Below, piece after piece: positions 15,001 through 24,000 of a stretch of 64,000 nt of DNA. Numbering within the stretch: the first letter of the stretch is position 1; each line of letters begins with the position of its first letter. Location of the stretch: the NCBI RefSeq assembly GCF_003018115.1, contig NZ_CP027457.1; one strand, given 5' to 3'. This DNA is from Escherichia coli (GTDB taxonomy: Bacteria; Pseudomonadota; Gammaproteobacteria; Enterobacterales; Enterobacteriaceae). The position numbers were made by a program.

Positions 15001-18000
15001 ACGCGATGTTTTCCTGCCAGCGATGTTTGCCAGACCGTGCAATTTCCTAAACCTAACACCTTCGCACGTACATAGTGCGCAGCTACTGTCGCGTGACCAC
15101 AAATCGGAACCTCAACGGTTGGCGTAAAGTAGCGGATGCGCACATCGCTGTCGTCGCTGTGCAGCAGAAAAGCAGTTTCCGAATGACCTAATTCGCGGGC
15201 GATAAGCTGCATTTGCACTTCGCTAAGATTATCGGCGGGGAAAACAACACCGGCAGAATTGCCGCGAAATGGTTGAGAGGTAAAAGCATCGACGTGGTAA
15301 ACCTGCGGTTTCATTAACGTTCTCCTGTGACTGGAGAACTATCATAGCCTGCAAGTGGCCGGAGAGCGAAGGGCTATCCGGCCAGGGTGAAATTATCGCC
15401 GCGAACGCACAATTTGATATCGACGAGTAAAGTACTCAAACGGCGCGCTCCACACATGCACCAGTCGGGTGAACGGGAATAGCAGGAAGATGGTCATTCC
15501 CAACACCAGATGTAGGCGGAAGACGAACGCTACGCCGTTGAGCATCTCTGACGATCCACCACGGAAAGTGACAATGCTTTGCGCCCAACCCACCAGCTTC
15601 ATCATTTCGCTACCATCAGGATACTGTGCTGAAAACGGTATGGTGCTTAGCCCCAACAGACACTGGACCAGCAAAATGCTCATGATGATGATATCCGGCG
15701 TAGTGGAAGTGGCACGCACACGCTGATTTGTCAGCCTGCGCCACAGCAGTCCTGCGCCGCCAATCAACGTCAACACACCGCAAATACCGCCGAGCACCAT
15801 CGCCATTAGTTGTTTCGCTGCCACTGGCAAAAACCACGCGTACATCCAGTGCGGCGTTAACATGCCGAACAGGTGCCCGAAGAAAATCCCCAAAATGCCA
15901 ATATGGAACAGATTCGACCATATCACCATCCCGCGTTTATCGAGCATCTGACTTGAGGAGGCGCGCCAGGTGTACTGCCCGTAGTCGTAGCGCAGCCAGC
16001 TGCCGAGGAAAAATACCGTCGCACAAATGTACGGGTAGATATCGTAAAAAAAGACGTTCAGATACTGAATCATTTCCCACCTCCCGCACTGATGTCGACA
16101 TATTGCGGCGCGACATCCTGGCTAAAGCGTCGCTGATATTGATTAAGCGGCGAGCTGTCACACGCCGTGGCGTTATCTTCAATAAACTTCACCTGTTCCT
16201 CTTCCCACACCGCATCCAGCGCCTGGGGGGTGTCATCACGCTCCTCACTGCGAATTTGTTTTGTGACACTGTCACTTGAAAGGGAGCTTCCTGCCAGTTG
16301 CAGCAGGGCGTCAAACAACGAAGACCAGGGTGCCTCGCGCTGTTTTAAGCGTCCGCCAAGCAGGGCGAGGATCGGCGCAACATTGAGTAATCCTTCTTTC
16401 GCCTGATCGTCAGGCAGTACGCTTAAGTACTCCAGATACAGCGGTAGATAATCGGGCAGTTCCCGACAATCCAGCTGCAGGCCGACCTTTTCATACTCCG
16501 CCAGCAGGTCCACCATTGCCTGGCCGCGATCGCGGGACTCGGCATGAACATGTTCGAACAGCAGCAGCGACGTGGTGCGCCCGCGGTCAAACACTTCGCA
16601 CCATTCGGCCTGTTTATCCAGCAGCGGCGCGTTAAGCAGGTTGCGGGTGAAATCCGTAAGCATCGGCGCGTCGCGGCGGATCAACGCCAGCGCGTCCTCC
16701 TTACATTCCCACAACAGCTCATCCGGATACTCCATCAACAGACCGATCACTTTGAGGATCTGCATTATTCGCCCTCCGCTTTGTCGCGCACTTCGGTGAT
16801 GTTGATGGCATCGATACGGCTACTGTTGAACAGGTTGAATTTGCTGTCCGAGCCGTGACAACCGTCGCCAAAGGTAAAACCGCAGCCGTTGCGTTCAGCG
16901 AAGGCATCGCCCGCCATTTCCCGATGACTGGTTGGAATGACAAAACGGTCTTCATAGTTGGCAATGGCGAGATAGCGATACATCTCTTCGACCTGGAGGA
17001 CGCTCAGGCCTACTTCGTCGATGGCACGAGTATCAGTAACGCCTTCCACGGTTTGTGAACGCATATAGTGGCGCATAGCCATCATCCGTTTCAGCGCCCG
17101 CAGTACCGGACCGGTATCACCGGCACTCAACATATTGGCAAGATATTGCACCGGAATACGCAGGCTTTCGATGGCGGGTAGCACGCCTTCGCTTTTCGGC
17201 AAACCGCCCGCATCAGCGTAAGACTGAATCGGTGACAGCGGAGGAACGTACCAGACCATCGGCAGGGTGCGGTATTCAGGGTGCAACGGTAGCGCCAGTT
17301 TCCAGTCCATCGCCATTTTGTAGACTGGCGAACGCTGGGCCGCTTCAATCACGTTTTGTGGAATACCTTGTTTCAGGGCTTCCTCGATCACTGAGGGATC
17401 GTGTGGATCGAGGAACACTTCGCACTGGCGCTCATAGAGGTCAACTTCGCGCTCGGTGCTTGCCGCTTCCTCAATGCGGTCGGCGTCGTAAAGCAGCACG
17501 CCCAGATACCGGATGCGACCCACGCAGGTTTCTGAGCATACGGTTGGTTGGCCTGACTCAATTCGCGGATAACAGAAGATACATTTTTCTGACTTGCCGC
17601 TTTTCCAGTTGAAGTAGATTTTTTTGTACGGACAACCGCTAATGCACAAACGCCAGCCACGGCATTTATCCTGATCAATCAGCACAATGCCGTCTTCTTC
17701 GCGTTTGTAGATAGCGCCGCTTGGGCAGGTCGCCACGCAACTGGGATTGAGGCAGTGTTCGCACAGGCGCGGCAGGTACATCATGAAGGTGTTTTCAAAC
17801 TGCCCGTACATCTCCTTTTGCATGGCCTCGAAGTTGCGGTCGCGGGCACGTTTTTCAAACTCGCCGCCCAGCAGTTCTTCCCAGTTTGGCCCCCAGATCA
17901 CTTTGTCCATCCGCTTACCGTCAATCAGCGAACGCGGGCGAGCAGTAGGGATATGTTTGCCTTTCGGTGCGCTATGCAAATGTTCGTAGTCGAAGGTGAA

Positions 18001-21000: not shown

Positions 21001-24000
21001 CCATCGTCGCGAGGCTCCAGCATTACCAGCATCGGCATGTCGCTATAGCGGCGGCAGTAGTTGATAAAGTAGTCGCTGGGATTATCGAGATGAAACTCTT
21101 TTAAAATCACATGGCCCATTGCCATCGCCAGGGCGCTATCAGTGCCTTGTTTTGGTGCCAGCCACTGGTCGCACAATTTGGCCACTTCAGAGTAGTCAGG
21201 GGTAATGGCGATAGTTTTGGTGCCTTTGTAGCGTACTTCGGTAAAGAAGTGGGCGTCCGGCGTACGTGTCTGCGGTACGTTAGACCCCCAGGCGATGATG
21301 TAACTGGAGTTATACCAGTCGGCAGATTCCGGTACGTCGGTTTGCTCGCCCCAGGTCATCGGCGAGGCGGGCGGCAGGTCGCAATACCAGTCGTAGAAGC
21401 TTAAACAGGTGCCACCTAATAGTGACAGATAACGTGTTCCGGCGGCGTAAGAAACCATCGACATCGCCGGGATCGGCGAGAAACCGGCAACGCGATCCGG
21501 GCCGTAGGTTTTGATGGTCCAGACGTTAGCGGCGGCAATCAGCTGGTTTAGTTCCTGCCAGTTGGAGCGGATAAACCCGCCGCGCCCACGCACTTGTTTG
21601 TAGCTCAGGCACTTTTGCGGATCGTTCATAATCGATGCCCACGCCAGTACCGGATCGCTGTGTTGTTTGAGGGCTTCGCGCCACAGTTCAATCAGTCGTT
21701 TACGAATGAGCGGGTATTTCAGGCGGTTAGCGCTGTAAAGATACCAGGAGTAACTTGCGCCACGCGGGCAGCCGCGAGGTTCATGATTGGGCAGGTCAGG
21801 GCGAGTGCGCGGGTAGTCGGTCTGTTGGATTTCCCAGGTCACCAGACCATTTTTAACGTAGATTTTCCAGCTACAGGAGCCTGTACAGTTAACACCGTGG
21901 GTGGAACGCACGATTTTGTCGAACTGCCAACGCTGGCGATAGCTGTCCTCCCAGTCGCGGTTGCTATGCATCACCTGTCCGTGACCATCGGCAAAGGTTT
22001 CGCCCTTTTGTTTGAAGTAGCGAAAGCGATCCAAAAGTTTACTCATGACATGACTCCTGCTCCAGGAATGAATTGGGATCTGATGCCTTGTCGGATGCGA
22101 CACGGTTGTAGCCTGATAAGACGTGTCAGGCATCGATCTCTTATTTTTGGCTGAATTTCCGCCGACCATAAACCAGCCAGGTCAGTAGCACACAAACGAT
22201 GTAGAAGATTAAAAACACTTTCATCGCGCCCACTGGAGAGCCGGTCATATTGAGCGACATGCCAAACGCCTGCGGAATAAAAAAGCCGCCCACTGCGCCA
22301 ATGGCTGAGATAAAGCCCAGAGCCGCCGCCGTTTCGGTGACGGCTTCTCTCTGAGCTTGCTCATCACTACCGCCTTTCATCTTCACCCGATAAATGGTTA
22401 TCTGGCGAAAGATGACGGCGATCATCTGGAAAGTAGAACCACTTCCCAGACCCGCGGTCAGAAACAGCCCCATAAATACGGCGTAAAAGGCGATGAAATT
22501 ACCGGAGCCTGTGCCCGGTAAGGTAAGGAACAGCAGGGCGCTGAAAATCGCCATAAAAATAAAGTTGATCAACGTCACTCGCACGCCGCCGAATTTATCG
22601 GAAATAGCACCACCCACCGACCGCGCGATGGCACCGATAAATGGGCCAAAGAACGCCAGGCGCAGAATATTCACATCCGGGAACTGGGTTTTTGCCAGCA
22701 TGGCAAAACCCGCAGAAAAACCGATAAACGAACCGAAGGTGGCAAGGTAAAGCAGGCTCAGCAGCCAGAGATGCAGACGTTGTAACACAGGGAGCTGGTC
22801 GGTAATTGACGCGCGGGAACTGGCAATATCATTCATCCCTGACCAGGCGGCGATCGTAGCAATCGCCAGTAGCGGCACCCAAATCCATGCGGCATTCGCC
22901 AGCGAAATCACCGAACCGTCGGCCTGCGGTACGCCATTGACGCCGAGAAAGGCAAATATGGGTACAAAAATGACCAGCGGTGCAACCAGCTGCATCACAC
23001 TTACACCTAAGTTTCCTAATCCGCCATTAATCCCAAGAGCGCTCCCTTGCCTGGCTTTTGGAAAGAAGAAACTGATATTGCCCATGCTCGAAGCAAAGTT
23101 CGCACCTGCAAAACCGCATAGCAAAGCGATAACGATAAAGATCCCAAAAGGAGTATTCGGATTTTGCACGGCAATTCCAAGCCAGACGCAAGGAATAATC
23201 AGGATTGCAGTACTAAAAACCGTCCATCGGCGTCCACCGAATATAGGTACCATAAAGGAGTAGGGAACACGCAATAATGCGCCAGAAACGGAGGGTAATG
23301 CGGTTAATAAAAAGAGTTGATCGGTAGTAAAATTAAAACCGATTTTATTGAGATTAACGGTAACTGCGCTAAATAGCATCCAGACACAGAAGGCAAGAAG
23401 TAGACAACTGACTGATATCCAGAGGTTTCTTCGAGCAATATGTTTTCCTTTATTTTCCCAGAAGGCCGGATTTTCTGGTTTCCAGTCGCGTAAAAGATAA
23501 CGACTATTTTTCTCATTTTGCAGTGCCATATTGTTCCTCACATGCACACATTGGTAATGAAAAAAGACAAAACAGGAGGTAAGGCGCAATAGCCGATTAT
23601 TAGAATTAAGGATGAATTGGGTGAAGTGCTGATTGAAAGAATAGATAAGAAAGCGTAACCGCGGGGGCAGAATGGGGATTAAGCAGCCAGTTATGTGTTA
23701 CTAAATGTAACTGACAAGCTAGCCATTAAACGGGGGGTGATCTTTGAACGCATGTCATGATTCAACCCTTCAGATGATGAATCCAAAGGGTTGTATATTA
23801 ACTATATTCTTAACAAGACCAGACACTTATAGAATTAGTGATAATTTATTCACTAAAAAGGCCATGAGCTGGAGGAAAACGATCTGTCCAGAAAGTCTAT
23901 CGGTTCCTCTCTTATTGCCTCATTGTAATAATAGTTATTACAATAAGTATTGTTTATTTCATCTAAGGTCATATTTTTAATTTTTATATTCCTCTGGTTT

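Follow-up and report, generated by a model that had tools for sequence, protein, structure and literature searches.

Overlapping cistron junctions with strong embedded ribosome-binding sites in the narZYWV and ddpXABCDF operons of an Escherichia coli strain

Two operons for membrane complexes, narZYWV and ddpXABCDF, lie in a 64,000-nucleotide stretch of Escherichia coli DNA (here the window; RefSeq assembly GCF_003018115.1, contig NZ_CP027457.1), and in both of them neighboring genes overlap by a few nucleotides. An earlier note on this DNA had read the overlaps as a sign of translational coupling. We identified the genes, read every junction, and compared the junctions with those of K-12, of the paralogous operons, and of more distant relatives.

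A listing of open reading frames (ORFs) and a megablast search against complete E. coli genomes identified positions 15393-22046 of the minus strand as the narZYWV operon. The first of these genes, narZ (18306..22046, minus strand), is annotated under that name in the closest genome and encodes the alpha (molybdopterin) subunit of nitrate reductase Z (NRZ). Its 1246-residue product has the length of K-12 NarZ, differs from it by 3 amino acids, and scores 2330.7 bits against the narG equivalog model TIGR01580 (cutoff, 1084.15), with residues 2-1234 on profile positions 1-1235. The beta (iron-sulfur) subunit, 514 residues, is encoded by narY (16765..18309, minus strand), the longest ORF in its frame; NarY exceeds the cutoff of the narH equivalog TIGR01660 (979.1 versus 524.05 bits), and its residues 1-506 align with NarH 1-506 in chain 1q16_B of the solved NarGHI structure (E 9.7e-293). 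The gamma (dihaem b) subunit, 226 residues, is encoded by narV (15393..16073, minus strand). NarV scores 426.1 bits against the narI equivalog TIGR00351 (cutoff, 105.55), and residues 2-225 align with NarI 1-224 of 1q16_C (E 2e-109).

Between the beta and gamma genes lies narW (16070..16765, minus strand), which encodes a NarJ-type assembly chaperone of 231 residues. NarW matches the equivalog NF011628 over its whole length (1-231 of 231) with 504.3 bits against a cutoff of 410, scores 120.2 bits against TIGR00684 (cutoff, 59.35), and also matches the NarJ structure 8jzd. Because NarW belongs to the chaperone equivalog, and because the matched NarGHI entries hold the beta and gamma chains while NarJ was solved in separate entries, NarW is an assembly chaperone that stands outside the final alpha-beta-gamma enzyme.

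The operon is that of NRZ and not that of nitrate reductase A (NRA), as its synteny (narU-narZYWV-yddE) and its near-identity with K-12 b1465-b1468 indicate. According to the annotation of the closest genome, narU (22141-23529, minus strand) is the cistron upstream of narZ, probably in the same transcription unit, narUZYWV, and a 94-nt spacer (22047-22140, minus strand) separates the two genes. A mutation upstream of narU raises the transcripts of all five genes (PMC11417348), in line with a polycistronic narUZYWV mRNA. The nitrate-reducing activity of NRZ and its RpoS-dependent expression are known from the literature (PMC8139620; PMC11417348).

The second operon, ddpXABCDF, is also on the minus strand and consists of a dipeptidase gene followed by a five-gene ATP-binding cassette (ABC) transporter of the Dpp/Opp type, with gene lengths and order identical to those in K-12. 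Its genes are ddpX (43808..44389), encoding a VanX-like D-Ala-D-Ala dipeptidase of 193 residues; ddpA (42244..43794), a periplasmic binding protein of 516 residues; ddpB (41220..42242), a permease of 340 residues with a GTG start; ddpC (40327..41223), a permease of 298 residues; ddpD (39344..40330), an ATPase of 328 residues; and ddpF (38425..39351), an ATPase of 308 residues, again with a GTG start. DdpX exceeds the cutoff of the equivalog NF007557 (334.7 versus 176 bits), and DdpC that of NF007376 (619.4 versus 434 bits; 1-298 of 298). The matches of DdpA, DdpB, DdpD, and DdpF to models of the Dpp, Opp, and Nik type fall below those equivalog cutoffs, as expected of a distinct paralogue. All 11 nar and ddp proteins have exactly the K-12 length, with no internal stops and 1-6 amino acid differences each. 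Hence, the operons are indeed intact, as the earlier note had held, on the strength of these full-length ORFs; the overlaps, from which it had drawn that conclusion, prove nothing about intactness.

We read the junctions directly on the minus strand, counting overlaps as negative and gaps as positive distances. The narZ/narY junction (18306..18321) is a 4-bp overlap in which GGAGG (18321-18317) precedes the start-stop motif ATGA (18309-18306; ...CAGGAGGCGAAAAAATGA...). At narY/narW (16763..16777) the overlap is 1 bp, with GGAGG at 16777-16773 and TAATG at 16767-16763 (...GCGGAGGGCGAATAATG...), and at narW/narV (16070..16084) it is again 4 bp, with GGAGG at 16084-16080 and ATGA at 16073-16070 (...GCGGGAGGTGGGAAATGA...). 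Two ddp junctions have the same 4-bp form: ddpB/ddpC, with GGAGG at 41234-41230 and ATGA at 41223-41220, and ddpC/ddpD, with GGAGG at 40344-40340 and ATGA at 40330-40327. The overlap of ddpD with ddpF is 8 bp long (GTGTCTGA, 39351-39344) and uses a GTG start, with GGAGG at 39362-39358. The last two junctions do not overlap: ddpA/ddpB has a 1-nt gap (+1) and ddpX/ddpA a 13-nt gap (+13). Overlaps of 1-4 bp had been claimed for three nar and three ddp junctions. That range is exact for the nar operon (4, 1, and 4 bp) and right for ddpB/ddpC and ddpC/ddpD, but not for ddpD/ddpF, and overlaps do not run throughout ddpFDCBAX as had been stated.

These distances depend on correctly placed gene starts. 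Every downstream gene takes the longest ORF that its frame offers, and alignments with the NCBIfam profiles begin at residue 1 or 2, as do those of NarY and NarV with the solved NarGHI chains; the curated K-12 annotation gives identical geometry at every nar and ddp junction, including the -8 of ddpD/ddpF. We conclude that the start codons are trustworthy. We also looked for an alternative ddpF start that would give an overlap of 1-4 bp and found none: the next in-frame candidate is a TTG 15 nt downstream, which at 21 nt from the Shine-Dalgarno sequence (SD) is too far away.

What the six overlapping junctions share, besides their geometry, is a strong SD. At all six, a GGAGG stands 7-12 nt before the start codon, an optimal spacing, inside the upstream gene, where it forms part of the last few codons, for C-terminal residues such as Glu-Ala, Glu-Gly, or Gly-Gly. 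Only 10 GGAGG pentamers occur in the 12.6-kb sense strand of both operons, and 6 of them sit at these six starts, so their placement is not due to chance. The calculated duplex with the anti-SD is -10.0 to -14.8 kcal/mol at the six starts, within the top 0.05-0.9% of 12,497 positions sampled in both operons: -10.7 for narY (top 0.46%), -10.0 for narW (top 0.86%), -14.8 for narV (top 0.05%), -13.8 for ddpC, -10.3 for ddpD, and -11.5 kcal/mol for ddpF. The starts that do not overlap an upstream gene (narU, narZ, ddpX, ddpA, and ddpB) have weaker SDs, -2.2 to -6.9 kcal/mol. The weakest belongs to ddpB, whose GTG start is nearly without an SD (-2.2 kcal/mol). With these features and its +1 spacing, ddpA/ddpB would be the likeliest of the junctions to depend on the upstream ribosome, an arrangement that could also yield less permease than binding protein.

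In K-12, the genes of narZYWV (b1468-b1465, within narUZYWV) stand in the same order, encode proteins of identical length, and are each 96.4-98.5% identical in nucleotide sequence to those of the window; the junctions have the same -4, -1, -4 spacings and are identical in sequence except for one synonymous base. Across the 30-kb K-12 region that matches the window, 7 of 21 co-directional gene pairs overlap, and all seven lie within the nar, fdn, and ddp membrane-complex operons.

The NRA operon, narGHJI, has the same order of alpha, beta, chaperone, and gamma genes, and all three of its junctions overlap, as in NRZ. Its alpha/beta junction, narG/narH, is likewise an ATGA, with the conserved MKI N-terminus of NarH following. 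The two distal junctions, in contrast, are swapped: NRA has -4, -4, -1 (narH/narJ being -4) where NRZ has -4, -1, -4, and narJ/narI (6850-6858 of the fetched record) uses TAATG instead of ATGA. Compared with NarI, NarV has one more residue, Ile2, whose ATT codon provides the A of ATGA (window 16068-16073); the difference in chaperone/gamma geometry is thus linked to an N-terminal indel of one codon. The SDs at the three NRA junctions are weaker than those of NRZ (-7.4, -5.8, and -9.5 versus -10.7, -10.0, and -14.8 kcal/mol). One might speculate that the two enzymes have diverged in translation, as the stronger SDs, the swapped distal geometry, and NarV Ile2 would suggest, but we give the idea little credence. 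If it were true, NarW and NarV output would be tuned relative to NarZY for an RpoS-dependent, stationary-phase regime in which free ribosomes are scarce, and coupling strength, besides transcription, would separate the stress enzyme (NRZ) from the anaerobic enzyme (NRA).

To place the nar junctions in a wider context, relatives were collected by a tblastn search with NarY against a plasmid collection and by fetching annotated nar operons from diverse taxa, which gave 13 distinct operons. In the order alpha/beta, beta/chaperone, chaperone/gamma, the spacings are -4, -1, -4 in E. coli NRZ (window, K-12, and a plasmid copy) and in Cronobacter; -4, -4, -1 in E. coli NRA and Klebsiella; and -4, -1, -1 in Pantoea. 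Moraxella has +298, +1, -4; Shewanella, +15, +10, +9; Caballeronia, -4, +26, +54; Ralstonia, -4, +17, +7; Marinovum, -4, +1, +12; Roseomonas, -4, +4, +11; Rhodococcus, -1, +35, +4; and Thermus, +11, +9, +4. The alpha/beta overlap thus occurs in 10 of the 13 operons, as ATGA in alpha-, beta-, and gammaproteobacteria and as -1 in Rhodococcus, and this distribution indicates that it is old and widespread. It accompanies a near-universal Met-Lys-Ile N-terminus of NarH (ATG AAA AT-), in which the A of ATGA comes from the second codon. At the junctions flanking the chaperone gene, overlaps are found only in Enterobacterales and, for chaperone/gamma, in Moraxella; Shewanella, Ralstonia, Caballeronia, Marinovum, Roseomonas, Rhodococcus, and Thermus have gaps of +1 to +54 nt there.

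The paralogous transporters tell a similar story for ddp. E. coli dppABCDF and oppABCDF encode the same protein families in the same order as ddpABCDF, which carries ddpX in addition. The junction between the D and F ATPase genes overlaps in all three operons, although the ddp overlap is -8 rather than -4. At B/C and C/D, dpp and opp have gaps of +9 to +14, compared with -4 and -4 in ddp, and their A/B gaps are large (+307 and +85) compared with +1.

How are the downstream cistrons translated? We consider it probable that these are ordinary cistron junctions of two intact, known operons, at which the downstream genes are served by internal ribosome-binding sites on a polycistronic mRNA with partial coupling to the gene before them; partial coupling through ribosome proximity at strong internal sites is our preferred reading, and fully independent initiation is its main rival. 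Under partial coupling, downstream nar and ddp cistrons would be initiated at internal ribosome-binding sites, and a ribosome ending the upstream gene would sit directly on the next such site. It would keep that site unfolded and might hand over a 30S or 70S particle, so that downstream translation would be partly linked to that of the upstream gene, with some coupling and coordinated output. The three nar junctions, ddpA/ddpB, ddpB/ddpC, ddpC/ddpD, and ddpD/ddpF all fall into the -8 to +10 nt distance class; ddpX/ddpA lies outside it. For this class, termination-reinitiation coupling has been seen with the native E. coli pairs hyfHI, astDB, and ydbH/ynbE as well as menDH (PMC6728339). Like the nar and ddp junctions, hyfH-hyfI, astD-astB, ydbH-ynbE, and menD-menH have a -4 or -1 overlap and an SD in the upstream gene, and some encode complex subunits; their coupling was measured with dual reporters (Huber et al. 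2019, 2023), whereas the nar and ddp junctions resemble them in sequence. An SD inside the upstream gene was common, but not strictly required, among the tested pairs (PMC6728339). Describing the overlaps as consistent with coupling was therefore fair, this distance class being coupled in other E. coli pairs, but the sequence does not demonstrate coupling.

Perhaps the overlaps are instead a neutral by-product of genome compaction and of the ease with which ATGA and TAATG arise, with downstream genes initiated independently by free 30S subunits and no meaningful coupling? Much of our data would fit: the embedded SDs are stronger than the SDs of the operon-leading genes, the ribosome-binding sites of narY and narW come out as accessible in the predictions, and orthologues and paralogues have drifted freely in spacing. 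Three mechanisms are under debate, namely reinitiation by the terminating ribosome, unfolding of inhibitory structure, and de novo initiation (PMC12548453). The literature lends further weight: Saito et al. (2020) argued for de novo initiation as dominant in E. coli (PMC7538156), and Brown and Wade attributed the abundance of -4 spacings mostly to ease of evolution, the start codon giving three of the four bases (PMC12548453). Nevertheless, we regard complete independence as unlikely. Upstream translation was needed in reporters for four of five native overlapping E. coli pairs, and removal of the SD lowered reinitiation in four of five (PMC6728339). In another report, moving the stop codon about 20 nt away made coupling collapse and nearly abolished downstream translation (PMC10666635). 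Subunits of heteromeric complexes are enriched 4.5-fold among pairs spaced -8 to +10 nt, which suggests selection (PMC10666635). Finally, complete independence is mechanistically unlikely because a ribosome in termination physically overlies the SD and start codon of the next gene. A different possibility is that the downstream site is locked in RNA structure and opened only by ribosomes finishing the upstream gene. This has something to recommend it at narV, where the predicted cost of opening the ribosome-binding site is high (16.5 kcal/mol, the 87th percentile of the coding background) and the minimum free energy (MFE) fold places the start codon and part of the SD inside a hairpin. However, the 120-nt window around narW/narV folds no better than its dinucleotide shuffles (z +0.37; 127 of 200 shuffles were equally stable), the corresponding narZ/narY and narY/narW windows do no better (z -0.34 and -0.42), and at the other five overlapping junctions the predicted opening cost is at or below the median, with narY (8.5 kcal/mol) and narW (9.3 kcal/mol) fairly open at the 17th-26th percentile. 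With nonsignificant folds and a high opening cost at narV alone, we rejected RNA structure as the general coupling mechanism, and we hold obligatory unfolding to be very improbable.

Several points nonetheless count against partial coupling, or limit how strong it could be. Because the junction folds match their shuffles and the narY and narW sites are open, a requirement for RNA unfolding is not evident. The strong SDs would permit de novo downstream initiation regardless of upstream translation. One of the five overlapping pairs studied by Huber et al., bioBF, was uncoupled (PMC6728339), and depletion of ribosome recycling factor (RRF) left coupling unaltered even for overlapping pairs (PMC7538156), which speaks against reinitiation as the main route. 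The geometry differs between NRA and NRZ and has been lost in many orthologues. Since orthologues and paralogues use other spacings, the overlap is not required for making the enzyme; overlaps are favored but dispensable for nar and Dpp/Opp-type complexes. Lastly, our literature search found no study testing translational coupling at nar or ddp junctions.

The overlaps had also been said to be consistent with stoichiometric co-translation of complex subunits, and this goes too far. NarW is a chaperone, yet two of the three nar junctions involve narW, and relatives encode the same enzyme with junctions gapped by +1 to +54 nt. The overlap arrangement alone fixes no 1:1 stoichiometry. Because other bacteria encode the same complex with or without overlaps, overlap by itself is weak evidence for obligatory or stoichiometric coupling. 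Nor is the pattern exceptional: -4, -1, and -8 are the commonest gene spacings in E. coli (PMC12548453; PMC10666635), so such junctions are to be expected, and 707 of 2,987 co-directional E. coli pairs lie within -8 to +6 (PMC10666635).

Two observations had been proposed as refuting coupling, uncoupled translation and independent internal promoters. The former is a valid test; the latter would leave coupling untouched, since coupling describes how any mRNA that contains both cistrons is translated. A sigma-70 consensus scan of 15000-24000 returned 6 sites versus 7.6 +/- 2.8 in shuffled sequence, a result that is uninformative for RpoS promoters. Two of the sites lie on the minus strand inside the nar operon, at 16098-16069 and 15715-15688, and none of the 6 is convincing. 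Neither promoter-like nor terminator-like sites were in excess within the operon, which is weak evidence that its genes share a polycistronic mRNA. A search against Rfam found no RNA family in nar or ddp, the SECIS (selenocysteine insertion sequence) element of fdnG being its only match in the window.

The junction architecture itself is already known: it matches the curated K-12 annotation and a well-described general phenomenon. Its significance is accordingly small, namely that this strain has intact narUZYWV and ddpXABCDF operons with standard E. coli junctions. The two operons do provide a worked example of short overlaps accompanied by unusually strong internal ribosome-binding sites.

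A third membrane-complex operon in the window, fdn, has a junction pattern like those of nar and ddp. Its fdnH and fdnI genes overlap by 8 bp (33007-33014, plus strand; ATGAGTAA) with GAGGAGG upstream, while fdnG/fdnH has a 12-nt gap. In fdnG, the Rfam match is SECIS_3 (84.3 bits; 29652-29710, plus strand), which starts at the in-frame TGA selenocysteine codon (29655-29657). It is because of this codon that fdnG stands in the mechanical ORF list as two pieces, 29070-29657 and 29706-32117.

The spacer between narU and narZ is 94 nt in the window and in the closest genomes, 13 nt more than in K-12 (81 nt). These 13 nt complete a palindrome resembling a repetitive extragenic palindromic (REP) element (GCCTGACACGTCTTATCAGGC), after which there is no U-tract. 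Compared with shuffles, the spacer folds somewhat more stably (z -1.39), and it could alter how stable the narU and narZYWV segments of the mRNA are relative to each other. At the narZ start, a two-codon mini-ORF (ATG TCA TGA; 22043-22051, minus strand) overlaps the start codon in ATGA fashion. It is kept in K-12 narZ and absent upstream of narG; with no more than 2 nt between the SD and its ATG, it is probably unused.

Both K-12 and the annotated locus of strain F9792 are collinear with the window, whose genes run yddE, narV, narW, narY, narZ, narU, leucine-rich repeat (LRR) and porin genes, yddG, fdnGHI, yddM, adhP, maeA, sra, bdm, osmC, ddpFDCBAX, and dosP. Between narU and yddG (23853-27698, minus strand) are two long ORFs (424 and 421 residues) and a full-length ORF of 366 residues. 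The corresponding features of the closest genome are annotated as an EspR1 LRR effector of the type III secretion system (T3SS), a fragment of an LRR pseudogene, and a porin under the label ompC; only the yddJ, yddK, and yddL remnants are present here in K-12.

In the megablast search of 15000-23000 against complete RefSeq E. coli genomes, the best match was 99.2% (enterotoxigenic E. coli [ETEC] O169:H41 strains); coverage of this 8-kb nar query reached at least 80% in 5,392 of the 5,426 genomes. Identity is at least 99% in only 5 records and 95-99% in most, so these genomes include no close representative of the source strain.

The narUZYWV segment (15105-23722, about 8.6 kb) is also carried by large plasmids of E. 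coli and E. fergusonii, for example of type IncHI1B, where it is flanked by insertion sequence IS1, Tn3-family, and IS903 elements (3587-12205 of the fetched copy). The plasmid collection contains 42 records with a NarY at least 99% identical in protein sequence to that of the window. The fetched plasmid copy has 97.4% DNA identity to the window and therefore comes from a different E. coli lineage. A Moraxella osloensis plasmid, finally, carries a 298-nt G/C-rich palindromic insertion between narG and narH (record positions 2203-2500), where most proteobacterial operons have ATGA; it may be a small mobile repeat.

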